A stretch of DNA of 20,000 nt from an uncultured virus (IMG/VR IMGVR_UViG_3300020195_000012) (IMGVR_UViG_3300020195_000012); one strand, 5' to 3'. Positions 1 through 20,000 are shown, counted from the stretch's first letter. Numbers and translations are program-made. The notes: generated from the sequence alone by a model not told the origin.

Positions 1-1
1 G

Positions 2-6055: not shown

Positions 6056-6082
6056 AATTACCTTTTACCGATATATACAAAT

Positions 6083-7372
6083 ATGAAATCACATGAAGGT
6101 ATGTTAATAGAAAAATACGGGTACAGATTCAAGGAATTCATTTGCTTCAAAGAAGGCAAAGAAAATCTTGAACAACCCCACATTATCAGTTCTGATTCAC
6201 CCATGAAGCTACCTGCTGGAATCACTCGCATCATCGAGGCGTTCAAAAAAAGCAAAGAAGTGCCAATTGGAAAGGAAGTCGATTCCAAGTCAGGAGGTGA
6301 AAAGGACGTCACCCTCAAGTCAAAGAAAATCTTCATCGTAGGCGAGGCTGTACGTGACTTCCTGCTCGGACACACACCAAGAACCTACGATATCGCTACA
6401 GATGCTCACCCAGATGAAGTCGAACGCATCATCAAACACGCCAAACCACCCATCCAAGTTGTCAAAAAAGATAGCAAAAATGGCGTCGTCAAAGTGTCTA
6501 TTGATGGCGAAACTTATAACATCGAAACCATGAAACTACCAGGCGACGACGAAGGAAATATAACTTTTACAACCAACCCAAAAGAAGATAGCGAACGTAA
6601 AGACGTAACAATAAACTCACTGTACTACGAACCATCCAGTAATAAGATTTACGACTATACAGGCGGGCTACGACACCTGAAAGATGGAACCATCAAAATG
6701 ATCGGCAAAGCCAAAGACCGAATCAAGAAAGATGGAATGAGTAAATTCCGCTACGCAAGAATGCTCAACAAAGTCCCTAATGCAAAAATGCACGACGACG
6801 ACAAAGAAGCAATGTCAGACGAAATAGATTCAGAATTGCCACCAGAAAAAATCCGAGACGAGTTCTGGCAGGGCATGGAAGACCTGCATACCAACGCAGC
6901 CAAATACCTGAAAACCTATAATGAAATGGGTCTGCTCAAACAAGTATTCCCAGGACTAGAATTGACCTTGGACTTCCCAGAATGCAAAACTTGTAAATCC
7001 AAGCCACTCGTTCTTGCAAGCCTGCTCAAGAATAACAAGCCAGTCAAATTGGTTGAGAAATTACGTGATCTCAAATACACAGACCGTGACATTAGAGATG
7101 CAGTGTTCTTAATCAATCTGTTACTGTTCAAGCCAGACTACATCTCAGACTTCAAAACTGAAATGACCAAGACAAGTCTAACCAAGCGACAAATAATGGA
7201 TTGGGCTAAGATCAATAACTTGGACACGAACATGATTGAAAAATTCTTGACACACCAAATTAGCACTGACCCCATGGATGTGCATGGAAGAGAAGGACTT
7301 GTCGGAAATGATCTAAAGGACCGAGTTCGTAGAATGGAAGCAATGGCATTTATGAAAGCTATGCGGACCTGA
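6083..7372 (+). CDS. Class II tRNA nucleotidyltransferase (CCA-adding/poly(A) polymerase family) homologue with degenerate active site
   Basis: IFIVGEAVRDFLLGHTPRTYDIATDAHPDEV matches motif A (VGGAVRD..LG..P.D.DIAT). EDSERKDVTINSLYY matches motif B (EDA.RRD.TINA). IYDYTGGLRHLKDGTIKMIG and PPEKIRDEF are also family-typical. Key residues are changed (see findings). Confidence 0.9.
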   Translation: MKSHEGMLIEKYGYRFKEFICFKEGKENLEQPHIISSDSPMKLPAGITRIIEAFKKSKEVPIGKEVDSKSGGEKDVTLKSKKIFIVGEAVRDFLLGHTPRTYDIATDAHPDEVERIIKHAKPPIQVVKKDSKNGVVKVSIDGETYNIETMKLPGDDEGNITFTTNPKEDSERKDVTINSLYYEPSSNKIYDYTGGLRHLKDGTIKMIGKAKDRIKKDGMSKFRYARMLNKVPNAKMHDDDKEAMSDEIDSELPPEKIRDEFWQGMEDLHTNAAKYLKTYNEMGLLKQVFPGLELTLDFPECKTCKSKPLVLASLLKNNKPVKLVEKLRDLKYTDRDIRDAVFLINLLLFKPDYISDFKTEMTKTSLTKRQIMDWAKINNLDTNMIEKFLTHQISTDPMDVHGREGLVGNDLKDRVRRMEAMAFMKAMRT

Positions 7373-7586
7373 TATAATTACCAGAACACCAAACGAGAAA
7401 CCTGTGAGTATTTTCTTTACTCGCAGGTTTTATTTTTTTGCAATCCGAAACTCCGTAAACACCAGTAATAATGTTTAAATTGTCTGCAATCATTACTCTA
7501 GTCGTGATTAAATTCTTTTGATTTGTTGTAATATCGATTATCCTTCCAAGACAATTAAGATATTCAACAATATCTCCAACCTTCAT
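7359..7586 (-). CDS. Small hypothetical protein (MKVGDIV start, possible SH3/KOW-like barrel)
   Basis: 75-aa ORF abutting the HNH gene; its 3' end overlaps the convergent nucleotidyltransferase gene by 14 nt. Confidence 0.6.
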   Translation of the reverse strand: MKVGDIVEYLNCLGRIIDITTNQKNLITTRVMIADNLNIITGVYGVSDCKKIKPASKENTHRFLVWCSGNYIRSA

Positions 7587-7587
7587 G

Positions 7588-7905
7588 TCAGACTCCAGGT
7601 CGATTCTTTATCTTTTCATGCCACAAAGCAACATCTGCCCTTACATCAGCATTCCAAGACTTCCACGACATCAAATGACCAAATGTGTAATGACAACGAT
7701 TGTGATTACAAAGCGTAATCAAATTATTAGGATCAAGTTCTTTTTCTGGATGAATGTGAAATGGCTCGATATGATGAACGTTTAAATCTTCAACTCCATC
7801 ACATATCACACAGTTAGGTTCTTTCTTGAGATGTTCTTGTTGAACTTTTCTCCAGCCTGGGGAACGTGGCGAACCGAAAAAATACTCTATAAATCTAGCT
7901 AGCAT
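7588..7905 (-). CDS. Small HNH endonuclease
   Basis: W...(EP)NCVIC...LNVHHIEPF...ELDPNNLITLC..RCH gives the CxxC...HH...N...C..CH pattern of small phage HNH nucleases. Confidence 0.9.
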   Translation of the reverse strand: MLARFIEYFFGSPRSPGWRKVQQEHLKKEPNCVICDGVEDLNVHHIEPFHIHPEKELDPNNLITLCNHNRCHYTFGHLMSWKSWNADVRADVALWHEKIKNRPGV

Positions 7906-7910
7906 AAAGA

Positions 7911-8126
7911 TTATATACGATTTGCAGCCAGCATATACTCGTGAATTTCTTCAGACGTTGGCTTGAAACAATACTCTTCTAACCACCAACTGCCATTGAC
8001 TTTACATCTCATTCCAGCGTCATACCAACAAATATCTTCAACCTTACCAACACGTCGTCTAGTCTTCCATCCAATTCTATTAGCGTCAGGGACAGAATAC
8101 AAAACAACAACAAGTTCGCCAATCAT
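7911..8126 (-). CDS. Hypothetical protein, paralogue of 8123-8341
   Basis: 71 aa, with RRVGKVEDICW...WWLEEYCFKPTSEEIHEY closely resembling its neighbour; 4-nt overlap. Confidence 0.8.
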   Translation of the reverse strand: MIGELVVVLYSVPDANRIGWKTRRRVGKVEDICWYDAGMRCKVNGSWWLEEYCFKPTSEEIHEYMLAANRI

Positions 8127-8341
8127 ATATTGTTTTTCCCCAACTTGTATGCGTGGATTTCTTCTCGTGTTGGATCAAAACAAAATTCCTCTGGAAGCCA
8201 AAAACTTGATTCTAAAAAATAGGATGCTTGGTCTCCAATTCCCCACGCGATGTCCGTCACTCTACAAACACGTCGTTTTATTTCAAATCCAGACTTAGTG
8301 GGAACAGATTCTTTGATAACAACAAGTTGAGTAATTTCCAT
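8123..8341 (-). CDS. Hypothetical protein, paralogue of 7911-8126
   Basis: 72 aa, with RRVCRVTDIAW...FWLPEEFCFDPTREEIHAY. Confidence 0.8.
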   Translation of the reverse strand: MEITQLVVIKESVPTKSGFEIKRRVCRVTDIAWGIGDQASYFLESSFWLPEEFCFDPTREEIHAYKLGKNNI

Positions 8342-8343
8342 GT

Positions 8344-8925
8344 TCAGCTCTCCAAGCCAATATAGACTGGAACTCCATCCTCAATTAATGTCATACTGGC
8401 ATTCGTGATTGTCATTGGCTCACGCCTGCCACCAAAGCACATTTGCCTAACCATATGCGTAATTGGAGTCATGTGACTCACAATGAAATAGTTCTTGTCC
8501 TTCTCTAATGAGGCAATAAAATCATTGATTCTGGTTCCGTAATCAGCATCAGACTCGTCATCGTAGTTGATGGTATTTTTGTTGCCAAACATGCTCCAAT
8601 CAAATAACGTATATTCACATGCCTTCTTGATAATCTCTGTTGATTGATGTTTGTGTACTGGTTCGGGGCTTTCGCCAATTCTTGTGTCAACACGAAACTT
8701 GACTCCGTTCATCGTCCAGAACTTGTAGGCAGTCTGCAAGCAACGATTGTACGGACTCACAATCCCAATGAAACTTTCAGGTTTTGCACCGATCTTCTCT
8801 CGACCCGCCAACGCCAAACGATGCGCTTGATCTTTACCACGCGGACTAAGATCGCTGTTAAATTGTTCGGTGCTGCCAGCATTGAACTGACTTTGCGCAT
8901 GCCGAACGAAGAAGATTTTTCCCAT
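8344..8925 (-). CDS. Histidine phosphatase (phosphoglycerate mutase-like, branch 1)
   Basis: N-terminal FFVRHAQS (RHG-type motif), DLSPRG..QA, SPYNRCLQTA, RIGE and IVSH. Confidence 0.9.
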   Translation of the reverse strand: MGKIFFVRHAQSQFNAGSTEQFNSDLSPRGKDQAHRLALAGREKIGAKPESFIGIVSPYNRCLQTAYKFWTMNGVKFRVDTRIGESPEPVHKHQSTEIIKKACEYTLFDWSMFGNKNTINYDDESDADYGTRINDFIASLEKDKNYFIVSHMTPITHMVRQMCFGGRREPMTITNASMTLIEDGVPVYIGLES

Positions 8926-8934
8926 TGCGTTCCC

Positions 8935-9432
8935 TTATGATAAAAGACTATACGTTCTTTTTAATTCTTGCCATTCTTGATATCCGAACTCTTGTACTGC
9001 CACGTGTTCATCATGTCCATCGAAGTCAGTTGGACTAATGGTACATTTGAATCTTGGGTACAATTTCTCTAATCTACGTAGTTCTTTCAACTTTTGACTG
9101 AATTGAAAATCTGAAATTGGTTTGAGACCTACAATTTGACAAATATATCTCAACCTAATAATGTCTTTTGCCAGGTTTCGGATTGAGTCGTGGATGACGG
9201 ATTCTCGCGTAGATGAGCCTCTACGCCACGCCATATAATCTTTAACAGGAGGTTCATGTTCGCCCCAAATCCAAACCAATTGTTCTTCGATGCAATACTG
9301 GATGGAGTATTGCATTCGAGCGAATCTGTCTGCTACCCATCTGTGAAATTCCCCAATCTTGTAGCTAAATAAAATCAACAAAATCAAAAAGAACGGGGAA
9401 CAACAACAAAACAATGCAAACACTGCCTCCAT
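8935..9432 (-). CDS. Membrane-anchored protein with a C-terminal NAD-dependent DNA ligase domain-Ia-like segment
   Basis: N-terminal hydrophobic helix (VFALFCCCSPFFLILLILF). KPISDFQFSQKLKELRRLEKLYP....ISPT resembles LigA P.ISD.EYD.L..EL..LE..HP.....SPT. A GGAG RBS lies upstream. Confidence 0.6.
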   Translation of the reverse strand: MEAVFALFCCCSPFFLILLILFSYKIGEFHRWVADRFARMQYSIQYCIEEQLVWIWGEHEPPVKDYMAWRRGSSTRESVIHDSIRNLAKDIIRLRYICQIVGLKPISDFQFSQKLKELRRLEKLYPRFKCTISPTDFDGHDEHVAVQEFGYQEWQELKRTYSLLS

Positions 9433-9458
9433 GACGTTTCTCCCGTCTGGATTCTACT

Positions 9459-10022
9459 TTAGTGCGAAAAAGCATCAATGCGAACTTTACTCTCTCTCGT
9501 ACTTTCCATTAGTTGTTTGACATTTTCCGCACAAAAACCAAACTCTTCACGTTCTATGAATTCGTATATCATGCCAGTCAGCCTATGAGGTTTACTGAAT
9601 ACCTGCTTCAAACCTGGACACGTCATTATATCCTTAGTGGTGAAATCTCCATAGCCCTTTTCCGTCCACTCTGCCATTTTTTTAGCAACAGAATCCACTT
9701 GGTACGCAATATGATGAGCGCCACCAATCCCATTGCGAGCCTCAACCCAATCAAAAACTATTGATCCAATCGTTCCTTCACTAACAAATATCTCAGGAGC
9801 AAGATGATATTCAAGTCGGTCATCTACATGATAAACCCACGGCATGTCCTTATCGAGTTTCTCTGGCGGCTCTAACGCCATGCATAAGGCTTTATCCGTC
9901 TTCTCGTCATTGAAGAAGATTTCAAACTCGGCTTGAATTTTGTATCCAAACGCATCCACAAAGAACTTGACTGCATCATCACGGTTTTTTACTCTGTAGG
10001 CGACGTGATCAATTCTTGACAT
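9459..10022 (-). CDS. VOC/glyoxalase-superfamily protein resembling the catalytic C-terminal half of 4-hydroxyphenylpyruvate dioxygenase
   Basis: RIDHVAYRV, GGAHHIAYQV, LKQVFSKP, YEFIER and GFCAENVKQLMES correspond to HPPD IDH / GIQHIAL / LLQIFTKP / FEIIQR / GFG.GNF.ALFE. Confidence 0.85.
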   Translation of the reverse strand: MSRIDHVAYRVKNRDDAVKFFVDAFGYKIQAEFEIFFNDEKTDKALCMALEPPEKLDKDMPWVYHVDDRLEYHLAPEIFVSEGTIGSIVFDWVEARNGIGGAHHIAYQVDSVAKKMAEWTEKGYGDFTTKDIMTCPGLKQVFSKPHRLTGMIYEFIEREEFGFCAENVKQLMESTRESKVRIDAFSH

Positions 10023-10422
10023 TATTTATCTCCATTCCACACTGACTTTTCAATTGGACAATTTCGTCTTCAACCCAATCTGTTAATACTCTGCTTTTAT
10101 AGCTGTAAACCAAACATAATTCATCCATAGTTTCTCGACCTGGATTGGCAACATAATCCCACTCAACTCCATAAAATTTATGTTTCGTATGAATATGCTG
10201 ATTAATTATTGAAATAACTCCATCTTGTATCGCTGAAAGGTTATTTCGAGTATTGAACATTTTTTCTGAATTAAAATGATCTACATTTTTAATCCACACA
10301 AACAAATAATTATGATCAATCAACATTTTAGAGATCGGTACTCGCCACGAAACATTCGTATTGTAAATTTTATTAATTTCTGCGTCACGCGAATTAAAGA
10401 CGCGCATATACGTTTCTAGCAT
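10009..10422 (-). CDS. Hypothetical protein, likely paralogue of 10422-10772
   Basis: 137 aa, AT-rich, with TRN...DG...HKFYGVE...YKSRV; TAATG junction with the upstream gene. Confidence 0.7.
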   Translation of the reverse strand: MLETYMRVFNSRDAEINKIYNTNVSWRVPISKMLIDHNYLFVWIKNVDHFNSEKMFNTRNNLSAIQDGVISIINQHIHTKHKFYGVEWDYVANPGRETMDELCLVYSYKSRVLTDWVEDEIVQLKSQCGMEINNVKN

Positions 10423-10772
10423 TATAACTCAAAATATTGTGTTTTAACTCTTGCACGGTAACGGAATCCAATTTGTTTAATATACATTAATGCTCCAGAC
10501 TTATCACCACTCAGGTCCGAACACTCAACGCCATAATAAATATGTGTACTTAAATGCTTGTGATCCAAATACAACTTCAATTCCAATATACCATTAAACA
10601 TATTAACAATTGCATTTCTAATGTCAATATTATTATTAAAAGATTTATGATCTTTTAATAATAATTGCAGTCTTCCATTAAATGGAGATATATCAAAGAT
10701 AACGTCAACGGGAGGGCAAATAATCAACCCGTTGACGTCTTTGCAAGTAAACCACACGTCAAGTTTTTTCAT
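10422..10772 (-). CDS. Hypothetical protein, likely paralogue of 10009-10422
   Basis: 116 aa, AT-rich, with IRN...NG...HIYYGVE...YRARV; ATGA overlap with the upstream gene. Confidence 0.7.
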   Translation of the reverse strand: MKKLDVWFTCKDVNGLIICPPVDVIFDISPFNGRLQLLLKDHKSFNNNIDIRNAIVNMFNGILELKLYLDHKHLSTHIYYGVECSDLSGDKSGALMYIKQIGFRYRARVKTQYFEL

Positions 10773-11200
10773 CGCTTTTTCCGTTCCGCTCGTTGCTGCT
10801 TCTTCCTTGCCTCTGCTCGTTCTTTTGGATTCAGGCGAACAATACCCTTTGCCTTACACATCTTTTGAAAATCATTCTGCATCTCTATAACTTCACCTTC
10901 AGTTCCAATATACATCTTGGGCGATACTCCCTTGATCCACATAAAGAACGTACCAATCTTGCCCTTGTCCGTGTCATAGAAATGCGACGCGGCAACATTC
11001 TTAACTCCATCAACTCTTGGCTTGCCTTTAGCCATCATCTCGGCAGAATTCTTGGCGAACTCTTCCAACTGTTCTTTGGAAAACAACGCTGATACTGTGT
11101 CTGTAGCAGCGACATCCGAATAAACAGCATCTTTTTTTTGTTCCGACAAATGTGGACCTTTTGTGTCCACAACAGCATTGTCAATTACTTCAGTAACCAT
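10769..11200 (-). CDS. Hypothetical protein with basic C-terminal tail
   Basis: 143-aa ORF overlapping both neighbours; ends ...ARKKQQRAERKKR. Confidence 0.75.
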   Translation of the reverse strand: MVTEVIDNAVVDTKGPHLSEQKKDAVYSDVAATDTVSALFSKEQLEEFAKNSAEMMAKGKPRVDGVKNVAASHFYDTDKGKIGTFFMWIKGVSPKMYIGTEGEVIEMQNDFQKMCKAKGIVRLNPKERAEARKKQQRAERKKR

Positions 11201-12582
11201 TTTTTGTCAAACTCCCGTGGGATTCCAAAATAAAACCTTTGATACTTTTGTTTCATGTCCTTGTACCAATCGGACTCTAAAATATAACTCAAATAAGCAA
11301 ACACATCACTGTACGGACGACCTGTCTCTTTCCAATAAAGTTTAAACTCGTCCGTCAAGTTGTTTTCAACTCCATCTACGGGAACAGTTCTATTCGCAGA
11401 TGGACTACAATTACGATTCACGTCATAGTCGGTGAACCCATGATAGTCCAAACAACCTTTACTTGGGTTGCCTGGAAAGTAGAAAGACCGGCATGGATTC
11501 GGATTCAACTGGTACACGAAACTTGCTTTTTTCAATGCTTCGTGTCGAAAATAGAACCGAATCTCATGACGGTGCTGGATTGGTTTGTAAAAGTTATCAC
11601 ATTGAAAATCTTTGGTGTCAACCCGTCGCCTAATCTCTTCAACATAACGACTAACCACTTCCAGTTTATTAATATCACCCTTCTTCAACGCCCTCAAATG
11701 CGGTTCACCCTGATAGGACAAACCTTCCATTACCCCAACTTGACCAGAGAACAACCTTATCAATCTTTCCTTGAAATGCTCTCTTGGCTCACATTTCACC
11801 GACAACAAAACACTCTCGCACGGAACACTTCCCAAGTAAGTTTTCTTGAATATGGATTGAAAAGGAATCAAGTCCTCGTCAACTCCATAAAACGAATCTA
11901 AGTTAGATTCAATCCCATCCCACAAAAACTTATCCGAACGTGTTCCATCTACAACAAAATGAACGTAACACAGGTCGGTTGTCACACCAAAAAAATCCTG
12001 TCCAATGTCATTCACTGATACAAGTCTAACATTGTTTTTCAGAAATCCCGTAAACGTCTTGTACGAACGAGAATTGTTCTGGAATATTGTCTTCGGCAAA
12101 ATGTAGTAAATGTGACCACTAACATTATTCTTCAAAATCAAATCAATGCTTTTGATAATGAAAAATACTGCTTCTTCTCGTATTCCTGTTACGCCATACT
12201 TCTCACACATCTTGCGAAGGTATGGCTTACGATTGAAAACCACATCATCGCCCAGTGAACAAGCTGGGGTGCGATAAGGTGGGTTTCCTATAAACGTTAT
12301 ATCGTTACCAACCAGTAAATCAAAATCATAGAAATTCAGATTAGCAACCTGTTCTCCTACGTACTCAAGCTCTTCATCTAACTCAATTCCCAAGATAATG
12401 GTATTTGGCGATTTTGCTCTGATCTTGTCTAAGAAAACACCTTTGCCGCAACTCGGTTCAATCACCAACGGAGTTACTATTTCCGTGTGACTCAAACAAA
12501 AGTCAGCAGTTTTATCCGGAGTGAAGAACTGCCCGAGTTGTTGCTGCTTCTCAGGTAAGTCTTTTGAATTGACTTTACCCAT
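11185..12582 (-). CDS. Amino (N6-adenine/N4-cytosine) DNA methyltransferase, gamma-class motif order, with a long unassigned C-terminal region
   Basis: LGQFFTP (motif X), VIEPSCGKGVF (motif I), GIELD, FIGNPPY (motif IV) and YILP. No cognate restriction gene is adjacent. Confidence 0.88.
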   Translation of the reverse strand: MGKVNSKDLPEKQQQLGQFFTPDKTADFCLSHTEIVTPLVIEPSCGKGVFLDKIRAKSPNTIILGIELDEELEYVGEQVANLNFYDFDLLVGNDITFIGNPPYRTPACSLGDDVVFNRKPYLRKMCEKYGVTGIREEAVFFIIKSIDLILKNNVSGHIYYILPKTIFQNNSRSYKTFTGFLKNNVRLVSVNDIGQDFFGVTTDLCYVHFVVDGTRSDKFLWDGIESNLDSFYGVDEDLIPFQSIFKKTYLGSVPCESVLLSVKCEPREHFKERLIRLFSGQVGVMEGLSYQGEPHLRALKKGDINKLEVVSRYVEEIRRRVDTKDFQCDNFYKPIQHRHEIRFYFRHEALKKASFVYQLNPNPCRSFYFPGNPSKGCLDYHGFTDYDVNRNCSPSANRTVPVDGVENNLTDEFKLYWKETGRPYSDVFAYLSYILESDWYKDMKQKYQRFYFGIPREFDKKWLLK

Positions 12583-13131
12583 CTATATTTTCAATCTCCA
12601 TTCGTTCAATTCTTTCTTTGCCAGTTCAACACATTCATCCGCTTGATCAAATCGAATGTTGTTGTGAGCAGGCCATATAATCGCACTGCCGCCTGCGTCC
12701 ACGAACTTCGTGCAATTGACTGTGTGGTCATCAATCAAGATCGTGTTCGGACCTGCGCACAATTCCTTCTTATGCGTAATTGCATAATCAGTAAAATTGG
12801 ACCCAAAATGCTTCTGCATCCATTGCAACTTGCCAGACAGGGACGAACTGTGTGTGGTTGGTCTGGTGAGTATGTACGTTGGGGCTAAATCCTTGCAGTA
12901 ATGATAAAAGTCCATCGCATATGGGTAAAGTGTCAGGTTCGCCCAGAAACCCTCTCCTGCGGCATTTATGACCTGAAAAAAGGCATCCTCGGAAATGCCG
13001 AGAACCTTCGCCATGTCGTACTCGCCAGAAGGCCAGACAGACAGCAATTCGTCATAATCCAAATCAAATATGTCTGCTGCGCTTTTGACGAAATTAATCA
13101 AAACTCCATCTAAATCTAAAAATATTCGCAT
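12583..13131 (-). CDS. HAD-superfamily 5'(3')-deoxyribonucleotidase (NT5C-like)
   Basis: IFLDLDGVL (DxD), FW.NL..YP, ILTRP, GKLQW, and K...ILIDD. The ATG at 13131 is preferred over the TTG at 13134. Confidence 0.9.
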   Translation of the reverse strand: MRIFLDLDGVLINFVKSAADIFDLDYDELLSVWPSGEYDMAKVLGISEDAFFQVINAAGEGFWANLTLYPYAMDFYHYCKDLAPTYILTRPTTHSSSLSGKLQWMQKHFGSNFTDYAITHKKELCAGPNTILIDDHTVNCTKFVDAGGSAIIWPAHNNIRFDQADECVELAKKELNEWRLKI

Positions 13132-13150
13132 CAATTTACCATAATGTTTA

Positions 13151-13183
13151 TAATAACTCCCAGAACTAATCTGGGAGTTATTA
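13151..13183. terminator. 14-bp perfect inverted repeat TAATAACTCCCAGA-actaa-TCTGGGAGTTATTA (terminator-like or processing hairpin)
   Basis: Seen directly in the gap between two minus-strand genes; there is no clear U-tract. Confidence 0.6.
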
Positions 13184-13191
13184 ATAGATTT

Positions 13192-13425
13192 CTATTCAGA
13201 AACGTCATCAATTTCCACGTGAGGAATTCCATCACCGGATTGGCTAATCACCAGTTTTGCACCTGTGCCCGTGATCAAGTCAACCAATTCAAGGGTTGAA
13301 TCAATTTCAATGAGCCAGTCTTGGCAGTGAAGGTGCCATCTCGCTTCAGGGTGTGGCGACCATTCTGGAGTAGGATGATCAATCGTCATAAACTTGTCGG
13401 AAGCACGTGAAATAGTGAAAATCAT
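13192..13425 (-). CDS. Small hypothetical protein
   Basis: 77 aa with a strong GAGGAG RBS upstream; fills the gap between the HAD gene and clpP. Confidence 0.8.
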   Translation of the reverse strand: MIFTISRASDKFMTIDHPTPEWSPHPEARWHLHCQDWLIEIDSTLELVDLITGTGAKLVISQSGDGIPHVEIDDVSE

Positions 13426-13452
13426 GGAAACTCCTCTAAGTAGAAAGAAAAT

Positions 13453-14004
13453 TCAGACCAATCTGATCTGATCACACAGATTCAGTTCAAGGGCTTCTTT
13501 CGCAGTCAAATAGACATCCGATGGCGGAAGCAAGTGTTTTCTAATCATCTTCTCTGTCAAACCTGTGTGTTTTTTAAAATGACGCATAATCATTTCGCCA
13601 ATAATTTTGTCTCTTTTAATTCCCGCAATCAACTCGTGTTCTTTTCCATCTATACCGCCAGCAAACTGATGTGACATTATCAACGTGTTCGGTGTCAGTA
13701 TTCTATCACCCTTCTTGCCTGCTATAAAGATCAATAATCCCATCGACGCAATAATTCCCATGCCAACTGTGCGTATTGGAATTGTGCTTCCAGCCATCGC
13801 ATCAACCACAGACAACCCGGAACTCACATATCCACCAGGACTATTAATGATCAAAGTCAACATTTCATGACGAGATTCAAAATTCTCTTCAATGATCCAT
13901 CTTATAACATCTGCGCTTTGTTCATCATCCACGTCACCAGAAAATTGCCATACGCCCCAATCCTCTAGACTCTTACTTTCCTCTTCAAAATCATCGTGTT
14001 TCAT
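13453..14004 (-). CDS. clpP: ClpP-family serine protease
   Basis: INSPGGYV..GL.VVDAM, IASMG (catalytic Ser), IMSHQ (His) and DVYLTAKEALELNLCD (Asp); the triad is intact. Confidence 0.93.
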   Translation of the reverse strand: MKHDDFEEESKSLEDWGVWQFSGDVDDEQSADVIRWIIEENFESRHEMLTLIINSPGGYVSSGLSVVDAMAGSTIPIRTVGMGIIASMGLLIFIAGKKGDRILTPNTLIMSHQFAGGIDGKEHELIAGIKRDKIIGEMIMRHFKKHTGLTEKMIRKHLLPPSDVYLTAKEALELNLCDQIRLV

Positions 14005-14008
14005 GAAT

Positions 14009-14347
14009 TTACTCTATTGTTTTAGCATAATTGAATAATACTACATATGTCATTATTATGAAAGAAATTACGGAAGAAATCTCTACTCCAACATGCCAAT
14101 CTCTTCTTTTTGAACGAAATTTAATATAACAAGTTATAAACATTATAAGAAAAACGCCAATCGCTTTACTCAAAAAAAGAACATTCCAACCGTATTCTTT
14201 CAAGACGTAAGCCATAATTGGATTGTCTTCTTCGCATCCATGATAACTAATTGCAACATACGTCGTTAGGCAATCAAAGAAATGTAACACACACGTTAAC
14301 ATAATGATAGCCCAAAACCATCGATTTCCAATATAACCATGTTTCAT
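14009..14347 (-). CDS. DUF5658-like membrane protein
   Basis: FFDCLTTY...EEDNPIM...LSK pattern with about three hydrophobic helices. Start placed at 14347 (ATGA overlap with the pyrB stop) rather than 14380. Confidence 0.75.
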   Translation of the reverse strand: MKHGYIGNRWFWAIIMLTCVLHFFDCLTTYVAISYHGCEEDNPIMAYVLKEYGWNVLFLSKAIGVFLIMFITCYIKFRSKRRDWHVGVEISSVISFIIMTYVVLFNYAKTIE

Positions 14348-15225
14348 AGAATGTCTTGTAATAGAGCAGCGCGAATCCATAAACCATTTTCCGCTTGTCT
14401 AAAATACGCTGCTCGCAAATTATTATCAACTTCTGGAGATAATTCTTCTCGTCTTGGCAGTGGATGCATAACAATACTTGAAGGTTTCATGCTCTCAACC
14501 AACTCATATGTGATCCAAAAATCTGCCCCAAGTTTATCCCCACCACCACGTTCTGTCTGAAGTCTTGTCATGTAAACCACATCTGCCCCTTTGATTCCTT
14601 CCTCAACAGAATTTCTAAAAGCAATTGTCATTCCTTGCTTGAAAGCAAAATTCATCACTTCATCAGGCAAAGACAATTTTTCGGGACTCACCAAAGTCAA
14701 TTTTATTTTTTCATACAATCCAAGCAGGTAAATCAAACTGTGGATTGTTCGTCCATGTTTCAGATCACCAACCAGACAATAATGTTTATTATCCGGCTCT
14801 CCTGTCTCTCGATAAACTGTGTACAAATCCAACAATGCCTGCGTAGGATGCTCACCCGTTCCATCGCCCGCATTGATAATTGGAACGGTCGCTACGCTTG
14901 CAGCTCTTTGTGCTGCGCCATTGTCAGGGTGCCTTAACACAATTGCGTCACAATAAGTAGAAACAATTCTGATCGTGTCTTCCAGTGTTTCGCCTTTGAT
15001 GGCTGATGAGAATTGCGCAGCGTTCTCTGTTGAGATTACGTTTCCACCAAGTTTGAACATTGCTGCTTCGAAACTGAGACGAGTTCGTGTACTTGGCTCG
15101 TAGAACAAAGTGGCAATGATGCTTCCAGTCAAAGTTTTGAGTGGAGACATTCGGATTTGATCCGCCTCCTTGACAAGCCTTTTCACATCTTTGCGACCAA
15201 ACTGACGTGCGCTAATAACGTGCAT
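14344..15225 (-). CDS. pyrB: Aspartate carbamoyltransferase catalytic subunit
   Basis: FYEPSTRTRLSFE, KGETLEDT, VLRH, INAGDG..EHPTQALLD, GDLKHGRT, YMTRLQTER and MHPLPR; RBS AGGAG at 15232-15236. Confidence 0.98.
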   Translation of the reverse strand: MHVISARQFGRKDVKRLVKEADQIRMSPLKTLTGSIIATLFYEPSTRTRLSFEAAMFKLGGNVISTENAAQFSSAIKGETLEDTIRIVSTYCDAIVLRHPDNGAAQRAASVATVPIINAGDGTGEHPTQALLDLYTVYRETGEPDNKHYCLVGDLKHGRTIHSLIYLLGLYEKIKLTLVSPEKLSLPDEVMNFAFKQGMTIAFRNSVEEGIKGADVVYMTRLQTERGGGDKLGADFWITYELVESMKPSSIVMHPLPRREELSPEVDNNLRAAYFRQAENGLWIRAALLQDIL

Positions 15226-15560
15226 TTCCTTCTCCTGGTTTAGTGACTAAAACAAAGTCGAAAGAACCCCTGTGGGACAATAAGGGTTAAGCTGAATTAA
15301 AGCTTAATACGTTTAAAGTCAATTTAAGTACATGCAAAAAGTTAAGCATGCTTAATACACTTGTTACACTTACTAACATCAGCTCTCTTCACAATTGTGA
15401 ATGTCCCTTTGGGTAAAGGGCTGACATAACTTGAGTGTTCGACAAACAGAGTGGGGTTCTAAGAACTCTGGGACCGCCAAAGGTGAAGGCGTTGTCATGG
15501 TTTTTATCAGTGACTTCTGCGAGTGTTGGCTTGTTTCACTAATGTAGCCTCTTGCTACTG
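15226..15560 (-). ncRNA. Candidate structured 5' leader RNA of pyrB (~335 nt) or independent ncRNA; no known family recognised
   Basis: Lies between a consensus promoter and the pyrB RBS. By eye it has two three-way junctions (15441-15496, 15376-15427), several hairpins, and G-U pairs that favour the minus strand. Confidence 0.45.
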
Positions 15561-15566
15561 CGAACA

Positions 15567-15595
15567 ATGTTATGACAAAAATCATTTTCTGTCAA
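15567..15595 (-). promoter_or_regulatory. Sigma70-type promoter TTGACA-17-TAACAT pointing toward pyrB, overlapped by an imperfect inverted repeat
   Basis: -35 at 15590-15595, -10 at 15567-15572, 17-nt spacer; TGACA...TGTCA dyad at 15573-15594. Confidence 0.75.
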
Positions 15596-15632
15596 GTGCT
15601 ATTGTTTTTCACGTCTAAAGTAGTACACTGTC

Positions 15633-16040
15633 TTGAACACTTGGAGAACCTTTGTGATTTTGCTAACTCTATTTGTACTTGTTTGTTGGTGTGTCGCTAC
15701 AATTGCCGTCAACAAACCCGAGATTGCTAAAAACCTACCTGGACAACTTGATCTAGATTTGACTTCTATTTGGATGAAAAGTTATGCAGTAATTGTCTCA
15801 CCAGCAATTGTAGTTTGCCTCGTACTTGGAATTTTGGCTGCATTAATGTTTTTAGTGTTTTATTATCCTTTTGATTTGTGCGCAAGAAGAAGAGTCGCTT
15901 TAGAAGCAAAAAACATAACTTGGCAAAAAGAGCAGAATTTGAACGATTATCGACGTGAAGTTGAAGAGCATAATTTGCAAACCGCAATCAGTCGTTTTCA
16001 ACATCATAACAAACTGAACTCTAGCGGAAATGATATATGA
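15633..16040 (+). CDS. Two-TM membrane protein with a C-terminal soluble helix
   Basis: Hydrophobic segments FVILLTLFVLVCWCVATIAV and YAVIVSPAIVVCLVLGILAALMFLVFY; TTG start is uncertain; ATGA overlap with the next gene. Confidence 0.7.
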   Translation: MNTWRTFVILLTLFVLVCWCVATIAVNKPEIAKNLPGQLDLDLTSIWMKSYAVIVSPAIVVCLVLGILAALMFLVFYYPFDLCARRRVALEAKNITWQKEQNLNDYRREVEEHNLQTAISRFQHHNKLNSSGNDI

Positions 16041-16315
16041 AACATCTATTTGTTTTTTTGGCTGGCATATTTGCAACAATTGCGTTTATGTGGATGTTGG
16101 AGTATTCCACTCCACGTGATTCATGCGAACAAGCTGTGTACGACCACCAACCCAAAGCAGTTTTGTTTATTGTTTATGATCCAAACGCTAAACACAGATG
16201 GGAACATTTTGGTGGAAGCGGTCGGTATGGCGATACTGATACAATCGTATACAGAGATTTAGTTGATATCAATAATATCAAAAAACGTGTTAAAATAATT
16301 GTTAGTTCACCTTGA
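16037..16315 (+). CDS. Small protein with an N-terminal membrane anchor or signal peptide
   Basis: MKHLFVFLAGIFATIAFMW; 92 aa. Confidence 0.75.
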   Translation: MKHLFVFLAGIFATIAFMWMLEYSTPRDSCEQAVYDHQPKAVLFIVYDPNAKHRWEHFGGSGRYGDTDTIVYRDLVDINNIKKRVKIIVSSP

Positions 16316-16340
16316 TCAAATAATTTAAGCTCGGTATAAT
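16312..16340 (+). promoter_or_regulatory. Sigma70-type promoter TTGATC-17-TATAAT, 6 nt before the pyrE ATG
   Basis: -35 at 16312-16317, -10 at 16335-16340, ATG at 16347, and no Shine-Dalgarno. Confidence 0.75.
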
Positions 16341-16346
16341 AAGTTT

Positions 16347-16940
16347 ATGTTACACGTTATTACTGATGGCGGATACGATGATTGGCGAAAACAATTACTT
16401 GATTTATACTTACACACTCCAGGTTGCGTTAAGACTGGTGATGTGACATTAGCCAGTGGAGCCAAATCAGATTTGTACATTGACTCCAAAATGGTTTCAT
16501 TGTCTCATAAAGGATTACAACTCATTGGGGCTTGTTTTCTTGAACGGTTTCTAGAAGAAAGATTGGAGTTCAATGCAATTGGCGGGATGACAGTAGGGGC
16601 AGACCCAATAATTTCAGCATGTACGTTATTATCATCATGTTGGGGACATGGCGCAAAAGGCTTTATTGTACGTAAAGAACCAAAATCACACGGAACTGGC
16701 AAGCTGATTGAAGGACCGTTGAACAAGGGAGACAATGTAATTTTGGTAGAAGATGTGACTACAACGGGTGGTACACTGGTGCAGGCGACCAGAATCGTTA
16801 GAGATTACGGATGCAAAGTGGTTGCTGCGTATACGGTGGTTGATCGTGAAGAGGGTGGCACAGAATCACTTGCAAAAGAAGGCGTCAATCTATTTTCCAT
16901 TTTAGTACGTAAAGACTTGTTAAATGTTAACTCAATCTGA
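16347..16940 (+). CDS. pyrE: Orotate phosphoribosyltransferase
   Basis: TLASGAKSDLYID, GGMTVGADP, VRKEPKSHG, PRPP motif VILVEDVTTTGGT, and VVDREEGG. Confidence 0.97.
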   Translation: MLHVITDGGYDDWRKQLLDLYLHTPGCVKTGDVTLASGAKSDLYIDSKMVSLSHKGLQLIGACFLERFLEERLEFNAIGGMTVGADPIISACTLLSSCWGHGAKGFIVRKEPKSHGTGKLIEGPLNKGDNVILVEDVTTTGGTLVQATRIVRDYGCKVVAAYTVVDREEGGTESLAKEGVNLFSILVRKDLLNVNSI

Positions 16941-17184
16941 CGTATCGTTTTTCCTTCAGCGTCACGCGCCTACGTGGTGGGATCGGGACTGTTTTGAAAC
17001 GGTGGATAAATTAGATTGTTTGAATTACATGGATGCAATTCTTATTGCTCAGAAAATGGTAGTTGGAAGGTGGAGAATTCAAGAGTTTAGACCCCAAGAA
17101 ACAGAACTTGGTGTTAGACTTGGGCTTGACTTTTGGTCGTTGGTAGCTACCTATGATTCTTCTGAGTTGGTAATAATTATTTGA
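16924..17184 (+). CDS. Hypothetical protein
   Basis: 86-aa ORF overlapping the pyrE end, within a tightly packed run of genes. Confidence 0.65.
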   Translation: MLTQSDVSFFLQRHAPTWWDRDCFETVDKLDCLNYMDAILIAQKMVVGRWRIQEFRPQETELGVRLGLDFWSLVATYDSSELVIII

Positions 17185-17196
17185 AAAGGATCGCTG

Positions 17197-17706
17197 ATGT
17201 TTACGGCGAAGGTTTGTTCTAATATCCGAGAAGCAACAGAATATTCCAAAAAGTTGCTTGCGGAGTTAGAAACAACACGTGAATTAGAGTTTCAGGTTGT
17301 TTTGTCGTCGTCGGAGACTGAGTGTTGCGAGGCTGGCGGTGACTGGGATCATACATCATGCATTTTATTAAATGCAATCCGTGAAATGGATATGTTTCAA
17401 GGATATATGATGTATGATCGTAAATATGGTGGGTTCTGGGATTTTGTTGAATGGGAAGTTCCAAACAAGAAAAGACTTACACCCGACCCTGATGAGTGGT
17501 ATGTAACAGCGGGTGAGAAGCTAGTTGTAATACATAATGTTCATGCTTTGTGCGAAGATCAGTTCCCAATTGTGATTGTCAAAGAATCATTTTGGAATAA
17601 TCATGGCGATCAATGTTTGAAAATGTTAAAAGTTATAGAGCCAGGAATTGATTACACGACCAAGATAAGTCCAGCAGTATATGTCGAATTGTTTTTTGCG
17701 GAGTGA
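17197..17706 (+). CDS. Hypothetical protein (acidic, aromatic-rich)
   Basis: 169 aa with an AAGGA RBS upstream. Confidence 0.8.
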   Translation: MFTAKVCSNIREATEYSKKLLAELETTRELEFQVVLSSSETECCEAGGDWDHTSCILLNAIREMDMFQGYMMYDRKYGGFWDFVEWEVPNKKRLTPDPDEWYVTAGEKLVVIHNVHALCEDQFPIVIVKESFWNNHGDQCLKMLKVIEPGIDYTTKISPAVYVELFFAE

Positions 17707-18056
17707 ATATGAGTGAAATTGTGATCGTCCCAAAAGGATGGGGTTACGAAAAGATATTTGTTAACAAATCTTACTGCGGCAAGTTGCTTCATTTCAACGC
17801 AGGAAAACGCTGTAGTTTTCATTTCCATCGCATCAAGGACGAAGTGTTCTTTTTGCATAGTGGATTAATCCGCTTACTCTACAGTATGGATGACGATTAT
17901 TGTCAAGCGAAAGAACTGATTTTACAGCCAGGTGACAAGTTTGAAATTCCTATCGGATTAAGACATCAAATGATTGCACTTGAAGAAAGTGATCTGTATG
18001 AATTTAGCACAACAGATTACCCAGAAGACAGTTACAGAATCATACGAGGCGATTGA
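17703..18056 (+). CDS. Cupin protein (D-lyxose/mannose isomerase-like single cupin)
   Basis: VPKGWGYE...YCGKLL...CSFHFHRIKDEVF...PGD...IP.GLRH...EFST gives an H.H..K.E...H metal site. Start is GTG 17703 or ATG 17709. Confidence 0.88.
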   Translation: MNMSEIVIVPKGWGYEKIFVNKSYCGKLLHFNAGKRCSFHFHRIKDEVFFLHSGLIRLLYSMDDDYCQAKELILQPGDKFEIPIGLRHQMIALEESDLYEFSTTDYPEDSYRIIRGD

Positions 18057-18058
18057 CG

Positions 18059-18087
18059 TTGACACGTCTAATCGTCTGTGCTAATTT
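18059..18087 (+). promoter_or_regulatory. Sigma70-type promoter TTGACA-17-(TGc)TAATTT
   Basis: -35 at 18059-18064, TG at 18079-18080, -10 at 18082-18087. A GACGT-tgac-ACGTC dyad overlaps the -35, and a GGGC-agttc-GCCC hairpin sits just before the ATG at 18128. Confidence 0.6.
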
Positions 18088-18127
18088 AGTGTATAAAGTT
18101 TAAAGAGAAAGTTCGGGCAGTTCGCCC

Positions 18128-18673
18128 ATGTATATGAAGAGAAGAATGATAAATCGTAAAGACAGATATAAGGTTTATGAGGAATTGCTAGATGATCAAA
18201 AAATATACCAAGAGATAGTAGATGCGTCAAACAAAGTGATGAAAATAGTCAAGGCGGAATTGCCTTGGGTTAGTTTCTTGGAAGCGTTCAATTTGTTATT
18301 GTATGGAGATAGTTTTTTCGAAGAATGTTTAGATGAATCATTCTCTGATGATCTAAACCTATTGCCAGTAGAAAAAGTTTATCGCATTGAAACAATTTCT
18401 GGTAAGTTACTAGAGTTTCAACAAAGTGACACAGGACCAGATTACAAAGCTATTGCTGGTTCAGAGTCATCGAAAGTAATTAGATTTACGCCAGACCAAA
18501 TTATTCATGTTAAATGCGCAGATACAGTGGATCAAGGATTCTATCCGTATGGTCTGCCAATGACTGAAAAGTTTATACAACCGGAAATTGATATTGATTT
18601 CGTTGCTGAAGCGTCAAAGAATTTGATTTCTGCGTTGACGACTTGGCGTACAAATAAATTGTGGAGAGAATGA
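18128..18673 (+). CDS. Truncated paralogue of a T4 gp20-type portal vertex protein (181 aa)
   Basis: FNLLLYGDSFFE, LLPVEKVYRIE...GKLLEFQQ, IRFTPDQIIHVK...FYPYG resemble large-phage portal motifs (R....YGD.F.E; IAHFR....F.PYG.S). It ends before the MEDA...RAPERR.FYIDVG motif. Recognised by eye. Confidence 0.6.
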   Translation: MYMKRRMINRKDRYKVYEELLDDQKIYQEIVDASNKVMKIVKAELPWVSFLEAFNLLLYGDSFFEECLDESFSDDLNLLPVEKVYRIETISGKLLEFQQSDTGPDYKAIAGSESSKVIRFTPDQIIHVKCADTVDQGFYPYGLPMTEKFIQPEIDIDFVAEASKNLISALTTWRTNKLWRE

Positions 18674-18674
18674 G

Positions 18675-19181
18675 ATGCGTGCCTTTGCGTTTGTGGTTTT
18701 GGCTTTTTTGATTGCAACGTCTTCAATTAATGCACAACCACCTGTCATTCCTTCAAAAAAGGAAAAGGACAAGGAAAAAGAGCCACCACGTACTGGCAAC
18801 CCTGACGACGTTCCTGTCGTGCCAACAAAGAAGGATGAAAAGCCACCAGCAGAGAAATCTCCTGAAAAGCCTGAGATTATCAGTGGCGAACATGCTGTGT
18901 TGCCCGCAAGTTTAGTCAAAAATACAATTCGGGCACTCAAGAGTGGAAACACTACTTATGTTGCGGTGGATGCGGTCAGGATTGACGCAAAACGCAAAAT
19001 GTGGTTACATCCAACTTTCATAACTGGTGCCAAGACGAATGATCGTCCCATCCAGATCAGAAGAGACACGGAGGGATATCATATTGTTTTAGAACAGATA
19101 GAGCATCAATGGGAGGCGGAAGACGTTGACGGGATTACATCTAAATGGATTCCTGTCAAAAGCGTTTCAGTCAAAGAATGA
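18675..19181 (+). CDS. Secreted/periplasmic protein with a Pro/Lys/Glu-rich linker
   Basis: Signal peptide MRAFAFVVLAFLIATSSINA|Q, a low-complexity linker, then a ~95-aa globular domain. Confidence 0.85.
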   Translation: MRAFAFVVLAFLIATSSINAQPPVIPSKKEKDKEKEPPRTGNPDDVPVVPTKKDEKPPAEKSPEKPEIISGEHAVLPASLVKNTIRALKSGNTTYVAVDAVRIDAKRKMWLHPTFITGAKTNDRPIQIRRDTEGYHIVLEQIEHQWEAEDVDGITSKWIPVKSVSVKE

Positions 19182-19837
19182 GGTTTTGGTTAAATGTTAA
19201 ACAATTCTTCACCGGGAGAGAGCCAGTGTTGAGTCACAACGGTAGTAATGACACTTGGGGTGGGTACTCAGGAGCCGATGAGCAACTCCAATTGTCTCAC
19301 ATGACAAAGTCCAATCGTTTTCCAAAGATATTTGAGAGCGCCAAAGAACTTCAACCAAGTGCCAAAAGAATTATGTCTTTTGGCTGCTCTACTGGTGAAG
19401 AAGCAATGACTTTGGCTGAATTGTTTCCCGATTCTGAAATCGTCGGAGTGGATATCGACAACCACTCAGTCACTACGGCAAGACGAAATAACAAGTTTAG
19501 GGATCGCGTCTATTTTCAAACTGATCCTGGCGCTACTGGCAAGTACGATTTAGTGACATGCCTGATGGTGCTGTTCAGTTTGGAAAAACCTGTTCCTGTT
19601 GAAAAATGGCAAACCGCAATTCGACTGATTGACAAGCACGTCAATTTGGGTGGTGTAGTAATGCTATACACCAGCGACTACGATTTCAAAAGCGTAGAAG
19701 TTTCTGGTAATTATGAGCCAATTCGTGAATGGGTCAGAACGCACGAACGTAACAACAAGAAATACTTCTGTGGGTACTACAGAAAAGTACGCATTAATGA
19801 TTATGTTGAACCGAAAGTAGTTTCTGAGGCAGCATAA
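19178..19837 (+). CDS. Class I SAM-dependent methyltransferase with a CheR-like motif I
   Basis: RIMSFGCSTGEEAMTLA...IVGVDID (CheR: RIWSAGCSTGEE.YS.A...ATDI), plus KYDLVTCL.VL and LGG. Start placed at 19178 (ATGA overlap). Confidence 0.85.
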   Translation: MRFWLNVKQFFTGREPVLSHNGSNDTWGGYSGADEQLQLSHMTKSNRFPKIFESAKELQPSAKRIMSFGCSTGEEAMTLAELFPDSEIVGVDIDNHSVTTARRNNKFRDRVYFQTDPGATGKYDLVTCLMVLFSLEKPVPVEKWQTAIRLIDKHVNLGGVVMLYTSDYDFKSVEVSGNYEPIREWVRTHERNNKKYFCGYYRKVRINDYVEPKVVSEAA

Positions 19838-19959
19838 TGTACTACAGATTTGTTGTTGGCAATTCAGTTGAATCTGAAGGGTCGGGGACGGTAGAGGTGA
19901 AACTTGGAAAAAGTTGGAAAACCTTTGAAGAAAAACGAAAGAAGGAGACTATATTATGA
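19837..19959 (+). CDS. Possible 40-aa protein (MYYRFVVGNSVESEGSGTVEVKLGKSWKTFEEKRKKETIL)
   Basis: Not in the ORF track. It is coupled by TAATG to the upstream gene and by ATGA to the downstream one. Confidence 0.5.
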   Translation: MYYRFVVGNSVESEGSGTVEVKLGKSWKTFEEKRKKETIL

Positions 19960-20000
19960 TAGCAATGAACACGAAACCCCGAAAAGTGATCCGAGTAACC
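19956..20000 (+). CDS. Start of a gene running off the window (MIAMNTKPRKVIRVT...)
   Basis: AAGGAG RBS at 19942-19947, ATG at 19956, and an open frame to the window end. Confidence 0.55.
   Translation, partial: MIAMNTKPRKVIRVT

Follow-up and report, generated by a model that had tools for sequence, protein, structure and literature searches.

Cos-type Staphylococcus aureus pathogenicity islands (SaPIs) reportedly encode Ccm, a satellite homologue of the capsid protein that redirects the assembly of helper capsids. Few proteins of tailed phages are as well conserved as the portal, which also directly triggers immune sensors of bacteria. According to the account of the T4 portal, gp20, in PMC4493910, the wing is formed by residues 70 to 254 and 378 to 450, the stem by residues 255 to 278 and 359 to 377, and the crown by residues 451 to 524, with helix alpha8 at residues 399 to 428. 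We analyzed 20,000 nucleotides (nt) of DNA from an uncultured virus (IMG/VR IMGVR_UViG_3300020195_000012), the whole of which we call the window, and followed up one open reading frame (ORF) on its plus strand, at positions 18128 to 18673, that encodes a stand-alone portal wing-domain protein of 181 amino acids (aa), or 179 aa from the start at 18134 (MKRR...). With moderate confidence, we take this ORF, carried by an uncultured huge phage, to encode a wing-only protein that derives from a T4 gp20-type portal, stands alone, and is both functional and conserved.

The ORF is a true homologue of T4 gp20-type portals, beyond chance. A tblastn search of 50,697 phage records with its product found a single record, LR756511.1 (expect [E] value 1e-14; 34% identity over residues 52 to 162), a 595-kb uncultured phage whose matched ORF of 857 aa fits Portal_T4 PF07230 (E = 2.6e-73) and, weakly, an intein-splicing model (33.8 bits, short of the cutoff of 35.8 bits). 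The reverse search, with the LR756511.1 portal against the window, returned the ORF alone (E = 7e-17; next best, E = 3). When phmmer was run against 1.84 billion cluster representatives, 108 proteins were found at an E of ≤1e-3, 36 of them at an E of ≤1e-10. A word-indexed search found nothing but the ORF itself among proteins of similar length and three portals, all with PF07230 plus intein domains, among longer proteins. These homologies, together with fold matches to portals only, bear out the initial annotation, which had described a truncated, wing-domain-only relative of gp20-type portals. A PDB sequence search with the ORF product gave 0 matches at an E of ≤10, and a DNA similarity search of window positions 14000 to 20000 against phages gave no match. 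The only Pfam match to the ORF, Pox_A6 (E = 0.078), was below its cutoff and was set aside.

Three ATG codons (18128, 18134, and 18149) could start the ORF, which ends with TGA at 18671 to 18673. The gene-caller form (P0001) is 179 aa long and begins MKRR, and because the nearest relatives likewise begin MKRR, 18134 is the likely start. The clean start and stop codons reported at first were verified in the sequence with its flanks, and the portal-like motifs listed for the 181-aa ORF (YGDSFFE, YRIETISGKLLEFQQ, and IRFTPDQIIH...FYPYG) were all found in the translation. Residues 8 to 142 (18149 to 18553, plus strand) correspond by homology to the first segment of the wing in gp20-type portals, in alignments A1, A2, and A4 and in the VIA alignment with T4 chain 3ja7_A, and they hold the motifs RYKxY, YGDxFxE, YRIETxxGKLLEFQQS, PDY, IRFxPxxIxH, and FYPYG. 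Residues 143 to 181 (18554 to 18670, plus strand) are a family-specific tail that is conserved in two relatives, P0005 and P0111, and that includes a helix at residues 156 to 180 (18593 to 18667, plus strand) in the predicted secondary structure of the AlphaFold model. The ORF stops 39 residues past FYPYG. Were the TGA read through, the next TAA would be 18 codons on, and the added stretch is, by eye, not portal-like. The initial statement that the protein "diverges right after PYG" was only partly right: portals can still be aligned at E147 and P152, and the closest short relatives keep the tail.

We modeled the ORF product with AlphaFold from a 105-row alignment (predicted local distance difference test [pLDDT], 89.7; predicted template modeling [TM] score, 0.85). 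The model begins with three helices, continues with a sheet region of six strands, and ends in the helix at residues 156 to 180. The best PDB matches to it in a Foldseek search were all portals (E from 3e-4; TM score by query, 0.3 to 0.5). VIA-align matched it to the P1 connector (Z = 13.1), to the gene transfer agent portal (Z = 12.9), and to T4 gp20 chain 3ja7_A (Z = 10.3; root mean square deviation, 4.2), where 156 residues aligned between model positions 8 to 181 and chain positions 70 to 429. Because this chain range ends at 429 and not at about 278, the last model helix superposes on alpha8 and skips the stem, clip, and tunnel loop. P0007, a relative with a leader resembling a twin-arginine translocation (Tat) signal, was modeled from an alignment of short forms alone (pLDDT, 88.0; its leader did not align and was predicted with low confidence), and its residues 37 to 229 aligned with gp20 residues 70 to 426 (Z = 10.5), placing its helix at alpha8 as in the window ORF. 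By hhalign, the ORF tail is contiguous with the first stem helix of the portal (probability of 92.8% to P0026 residues 243 to 267), and our reading of the models is that this former stem helix would now fold back and close the wing. The predicted product is thus a closed wing domain without the stem, clip, tunnel loop, and crown.

The ORF belongs to a family of short proteins. We sorted 109 representative proteins into 41 long forms, 56 complete short forms, and 8 fragments, with 4 doubtful ones set aside. The long forms carry the continuation motif, of the MEDAM or RAPERR type; the complete short forms (155 to 376 aa; median, 226.5) are without it and stop 24 to 79 residues after YPYG. The window ORF, complete at 181 aa, with wing motifs and no portal continuation, is one of these short forms. 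Searched against the phage records, the short forms P0007, P0009, and P0030 matched the LR756511.1 portal and nothing else, and phrog_12 or phrog_9232 was matched by 3 plus 1 of 23 short relatives. An IMG/VR scan seeded with A3 gave 127 relatives, and the motif was present in 70 of the 80 that were kept, in every case in a long portal ORF; L026, one of the 10 without the motif, is an 849-aa frame. A scan seeded with P0014 gave 29 loci, of which 28 were examined (26 full portals, 1 cut by the contig end, and 1 short Tat-leader form), and one seeded with A6 gave a previously found record only. The scans that started from Tat-leader forms thus brought up almost nothing but full portals with inteins, and short forms are rare in IMG/VR. 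Four contigs of metagenome-assembled genomes matched the core only in the genome-contig scan, and the nearest ESM Atlas clusters, which we treat as leads only, are short portal-annotated or unnamed viral proteins.

Many of the short forms begin with what may be an export signal. We called a leader Tat-like if RR occurred within the first 25 residues and was followed by a 12-residue stretch with a hydropathy of at least 1.4. By this rule, such a leader (for example, MNRRDFLKAGA...AQA|EP) is present in 30 of the 56 short forms, and 6 more have one under a laxer cutoff; the curated models recognized TAT_signal (Pfam) in 5 of 23 and TIGR01409 above its cutoff in 2 of 56. The N terminus of the window ORF product, MKRRMINRKDRYK, reaches a maximal 12-residue hydropathy after RR of -0.16, versus 1.4 to 2.3 in the leader forms, and P0005 likewise has MKRR without a hydrophobic stretch (-0.10). 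Searches with TAT_signal and TIGR01409 found no match to the window ORF. Because no hydrophobic stretch follows MKRR, both products are expected to remain cytoplasmic.

A quick maximum likelihood tree was built from 84 rows and 162 shared columns after rows with fewer than 100 of the 143 window positions were dropped. A single clade (Shimodaira-Hasegawa approximate likelihood ratio test [SH-aLRT], 97) held all 32 long forms in the tree and one short form, P0012. Outside this full-portal clade, the window ORF paired with P0005 (SH-aLRT, 99). End branches were about 0.3 to 1.4 for short forms, with one of 2.33, and 0.1 to 0.4 for most full portals. An old, fast-evolving family appears to fit this tree better than recent copies of each phage's own portal, in a tree where long-branch effects and repeated origins are possible and the root is unfixed. 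The description of the ORF as a paralogue of this phage's own portal was not borne out, since the ORF lies outside the full-portal clade and the genome read amounts to 28.7 kb.

The ORF has the marks of an intact gene. From MKRR to the stop, it is colinear with P0005 (187 aa) and with P0111 (188 aa), a member of the P0005 cluster, and the short form, with 56 examples in total, is conserved among relatives. The ORF and P0005 are identical at 84/170 aligned residues (49%), and the identities are unevenly spread: 13/17 in residues 1 to 20, 12/55 (22%) in residues 21 to 83, 33/59 in residues 84 to 142, and 26/39 (67%) in the tail, so that the tail and the N-terminal 20 residues are the best conserved parts. 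The tail is identical to that of P0111 at 30 of 39 positions. The P0005 alignment has several gaps, yet all the sequences are full predicted proteins with homologous ends. Because the ends and the tail are kept at about 50% identity, the ORF is not a decaying fragment.

Nor, within the 28.7 kb read, is it part of a broken portal, and it is not a product of assembly. In tblastn searches with four full portals, we found no other portal piece in window positions 1 to 20000 or in the 8.7 kb beyond (28.7 kb of a 93-kb contig). Three of these four full-portal queries, those used besides the LR756511.1 portal, matched the ORF alone in the window and in L002, the contig locus that extends the view 8.7 kb past the window end; their other matches had an E of ≥0.03. 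The initial annotation had named a split or frameshifted portal as the case that would undo its proposal, and the ORF is not one, with no remaining portal half within the 28.7 kb. Nine microbial-mat runs hold the stretch. Contigs in X1 and X3, both of which may be the source sample, span 16300 to 19900 with 0 differences at about 26x, and X6, which is not flagged as source, has a piece (17955 to 18315) that bridges the 5' junction; the 3' junction is bridged in X1 and X3 only. The ORF protein is recorded on 4 plus 2 contigs of up to 133,538 bp. The ORF is not an assembly artifact.

A promoter-like site (18059 to 18087, plus strand) was read from the sequence in the 71-nt gap between a cupin gene and the ORF. 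This putative site has TTGACA at 18059 to 18064, which is a perfect -35 element, a 17-nt spacer, and TAATTT, which matches the -10 element at 3 of 6 positions. The consensus promoter scan of positions 15000 to 20000 did not call it and found 16 promoter-like sites against 11.5 ± 3.7 expected. A relaxed pattern matched 4 sites in the window, this one included, where 1.2 ± 1.07 were expected; a count of 4 was reached in 7 of 200 shuffles. The sigma70 promoter first assigned to the ORF therefore keeps its perfect TTGACA, but with half of the -10 element and no call by the consensus scan, and its designation as a host-type early promoter was upheld by neither the scan nor the relaxed pattern. A promoter before the ORF is plausible from these features, if weak. 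The next gene (18675 to 19181, plus strand) begins 1 nt past the ORF stop and encodes a 168-aa protein with no family in Pfam or PHROGs, which we read as an N-terminal signal-peptide-like stretch, a K/E/P-rich linker, and a C-terminal domain; it has no counterpart next to the Tat-leader form in L120.

The neighborhood of the ORF is an auxiliary region of a huge phage. The window matches the metagenome contig Ga0163151_10000269 (93,023 bp) at 99.99% identity, with 1 mismatch in 11,873, and the lone base difference from the L002 contig stretch is at position 14226. A giant ORF (2 to 6055, plus strand; 2,017 aa or longer), open at the window start and without a Pfam family, has LR756511.1 as its sole GenBank phage match (38% over residues 197 to 419). 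Because this sole match among GenBank phages is again LR756511.1, the phage is a distant relative of the huge phages with this portal type. The giant ORF and the portal alone are shared in 50 kb of LR756511.1, which is too little for positional homology. Host-like genes in the region encode a PolyA_pol/CCA-adding-type nucleotidyltransferase (6083 to 7372), ClpP (13453 to 14004), aspartate carbamoyltransferase (14344 to 15225), a phosphoribosyltransferase (16347 to 16940), and a Glu/Gln-type aminoacyl-tRNA synthetase (L002:15542-17083). Other window genes encode HNH, histidine phosphatase, glyoxalase, Eco57I-type methylase, 5'-nucleotidase, and cupin proteins. As first stated, the ORF has no terminase or capsid neighbors, none being found by Pfam or PHROGs in the window or the next 8.7 kb.

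Downstream are genes for a methyltransferase, Resolvase plus MerR proteins, the Glu/Gln-type tRNA synthetase, and a LAGLIDADG endonuclease. The first recombinase gene (L002:12016-12714, plus strand; about 140 bases past the window end) encodes a serine recombinase with an N-terminal MerR-type helix-turn-helix (HTH) (Resolvase, E = 6e-21), which we take to be IS607-like; the 77-aa ORF after it, with no family match, may be a transposase-B remnant. A second MerR-HTH ORF (L002:18147-18578), the LAGLIDADG endonuclease ORF (L002:18544-19482), and a Resolvase piece covering profile positions 49 to 141 only (L002:20070-20459), all on the plus strand, together look like a recombinase gene interrupted by a homing-endonuclease element (L002:18147-20459).

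A short Tat-leader form of 260 aa also occurs in a 373-kb IMG/VR record (G006), where it lies among small unknown genes with overlapping starts and stops. Proteins of the window phage have matches in this record (giant ORF, 28%; nucleotidyltransferase, 32%; phosphoribosyltransferase, 43%; glyoxalase, 55%). Two other G006 ORFs join a Tat-like leader to a piece of a virion protein. One, of 109 aa (G006 86924-87253, equivalent to L129:6924-7253; plus strand), has such a leader (MMNRRNLFGVLFGG...) and a portal crown piece that is 49% identical to P0003 residues 672 to 743. The other, of 216 aa (G006 104123-104770, equivalent to L130:4123-4770; minus strand), matches phrog_227, "tail sheath stabilizer," over residues 144 to 181 (E = 2.7e-6). 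Two further leader ORFs in this record, at 77714 and 207130, have no family match. A PF07230 search of G006 gave no match at an E of ≤1, and no terminase, capsid, or portal family was found among 49 of its 53 ORFs of at least 330 aa, the 4 left out being the giant-ORF homologue, which crosses the 20-kb cuts, and 3 antisense overlaps. Because the head module is either outside this record or unrecognizable, the missing full portal is uninformative.

We propose that the ORF keeps the first wing segment, equivalent to gp20 residues 70 to 254 or so, and that its conserved C-terminal amphipathic helix would fold back to the place of alpha8 and close the wing. The product, having no hydrophobic leader, would work in the cytoplasm as a soluble mimic of the outer wing surface of the portal and compete for a partner of that surface. 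The partner could be a host factor that recognizes portal folds, for which the protein would be a decoy or sponge, or it could be a head-assembly component (portal subunits, scaffold, or capsid protein) of the same phage or a rival one. Taken singly, each of these two classes is unlikely, and we rank them roughly equally; the remainder goes to an exapted, unrelated function.

As an immune decoy, the wing-only protein would bind a portal-sensing STAND NTPase of the Avs4 or Avs11 type without activating it and so titrate the sensor, a role we put forward only tentatively. Avs4 and Avs11 are described as sensing portals, and Avs families as sensing much of the core virion proteome, in a preprint (bioRxiv 10.64898/2026.01.04.697583). 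The short forms are fast evolving and sporadic, the ORF is outside the structural module and behind a possible promoter, and parts of three virion proteins bear leaders in G006 (the portal wing, the portal crown, and a piece like the tail sheath stabilizer), all of which are consistent with a decoy. The Avs4-portal complex 8dgf is among the fold matches, at rank 25, a placing that reflects the portal fold only. The same preprint describes Avs proteins as activated by target binding, so a fragment could trigger the sensor, which argues against a simple cytoplasmic decoy. Moreover, the Tat-like leaders of most relatives would export the domain away from the sensors, which act in the cytoplasm, and no published decoy of this kind was found in the literature searched. 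The decoy might be one instance of a widespread phage strategy in which autonomous pieces of the virion proteome (portal wing, crown, tail, and capsid) serve as sponges for Avs-type sensors, an extension that we consider improbable. The pieces would be expressed apart from the virion genes; leaderless forms would act in the cytoplasm, and Tat-leader forms would carry the bound sensor to the translocon or jam it there.

The protein could instead be an assembly modulator or poison subunit that takes a place next to portal subunits or attaches to scaffold or capsid protein, either regulating head initiation of its own phage or blocking a coinfecting T4-type phage. We regard this as doubtful to the same degree as the decoy. 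The wing makes the portal-capsid contacts in T4, and the N-terminal region is needed for head assembly, as stated for gp20 in PMC4493910; wing tryptophans of P22 and herpes simplex virus 1 are required for scaffold binding, as outlined in PMC9320234. In line with this role, the conserved wing core is kept in the ORF. Against this role, the phage's own portal would have to be spared, the gene is sporadic among relatives, and exported family members could not meet cytoplasmic proheads.

A third possibility, on which we also place a low probability, is that an old partial portal copy was exapted as a stable fold for a role unrelated to portals, perhaps in the periplasm or envelope in the leader-bearing relatives, with the window protein a leaderless offshoot. 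Tat-like leaders with AxA-type ends occur in many relatives, TAT_signal and TIGR01409 match some of them (5/23 and 2/56), MKRR directly precedes the RYK motif in the ORF and P0005, as would be seen after loss of the hydrophobic part of a leader, and the branches leading away from true portals are long. The curated Tat models recognize few of the leaders, however, and neither a new domain nor a catalytic motif is present in the ORF. A further point against exaptation, although compatible with either reading, is that the portal motifs are still nearly invariant. That the ORF is a nonfunctional relic, a split gene, or an assembly error (a rearrangement remnant or a portal half broken by a mobile element) is very unlikely: the mobile genes 1.5 to 10 kb downstream (Resolvase plus MerR and LAGLIDADG), the intein-rich closest full portals, and the few relatives of the ORF would suit it, but the frame is open and its ends and tail are conserved although identity to P0005 is 49%, the predicted fold is compact and of high confidence, 56 complete short forms have matching ends, no second portal piece lies within the 28.7 kb read, and the arrangement is repeated in several runs.

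Several results weigh against a functional, conserved wing-only mimic of the portal. The PF07230 model did not match the ORF at an E of ≤1, leaving it below the Pfam gathering threshold, and a PHROGs search found no family, portal families included. There was no sequence signal for homology of the ORF tail to the alpha8 region (hhalign probability, 0.8%), and the position of the last helix at the alpha8 site is predicted, from models and alignment ranges rather than a residue-level superposition. The Tat-like leader in roughly half or more of the family points to export, and a cytoplasmic mimic would leave the leaders unexplained. Close relatives are few, with one 50% cluster besides that of the ORF itself in the phmmer search, and IMG/VR scans seeded with the ORF, P0005, and A5 found no relative. 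No short form was found in five huge-phage records with full portals, and for this reason the gene is sporadic and dispensable. Paralogy to the phage's own portal, as well as any self-interaction, would be conjectural, and a wing fragment that binds a fold-recognizing sensor might activate rather than block it.

In the literature searched, at the level of titles and abstracts, neither truncated portal paralogues nor virion pieces with Tat leaders were found to be described, and the ORF family would be an undescribed accessory gene family of domain-only portal derivatives. If the wing-only protein is a mimic, it would represent a new class of phage counterdefense or interphage weapon and a simple reagent for probing binders of the portal wing. 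If it is exapted, it would clearly illustrate how new genes arise from parts of essential virion genes. The family is testable either way because each member is a single small soluble protein.

Of the known systems, T4 gp20 (PF07230; PDB 3JA7 and 6UZC) has a first wing segment that agrees with the ORF in both fold and motifs (VIA Z scores of 10.3 to 10.4 for model residues 7/8 to 181 against chain residues 67/70 to 429). Portals of the gp20 type are about 520 to 860 aa long, versus 181 aa for the ORF, which is without their N-terminal 70 or so residues, stem, clip, tunnel loop, second wing segment, crown, and MEDAM...RAPERR continuation. With these parts absent, the ORF product can neither serve as a DNA channel nor provide docking for terminase and neck proteins. 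The nearest full-length relatives are the intein-bearing portals of huge phages (the 857-aa LR756511.1 ORF and P0002 to P0004), at 34 to 40% identity over 56 to 70% of the ORF. These are complete, at 830 to 1,665 aa, with one to several inteins, whereas the window ORF has no intein and has Ser at the first intein site. Nearly all the nearest full-length portals (L001:3885-6458; L003 to L082 and L096 to L123) have an intein at a common DEA|C site, and some full-length portals of the clade, at 1,250 to 1,665 aa, have further inteins; because of this near-universal occupancy and the additional inteins, the portal gene of the clade is an intein hot spot. The ORF tail resembles the second intein of P0002 in alignment A1, and its being an intein start was ruled out by the tail conservation in P0005 and P0111 and the hhalign contiguity with the portal.

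The Tat-leader short forms (P0007, P0010, P0021, and the L120 ORF, among others) have in common with the window ORF the wing core, an end point about 24 to 79 residues past YPYG, and the predicted closing helix, and they group with it outside the full portals in the tree. They differ in their RR plus hydrophobic leader, in place of which the window ORF, P0005, and P0111 have MKRR only, along with a strongly conserved tail of their own. Ccm of the SaPIs is likewise a diverged copy of a core virion protein that is kept as an accessory gene, and it acts by assembly mimicry. It is near full length and satellite borne, and its effects have been shown, whereas the ORF, known from sequence alone, is a single-domain piece of a portal in a huge phage.

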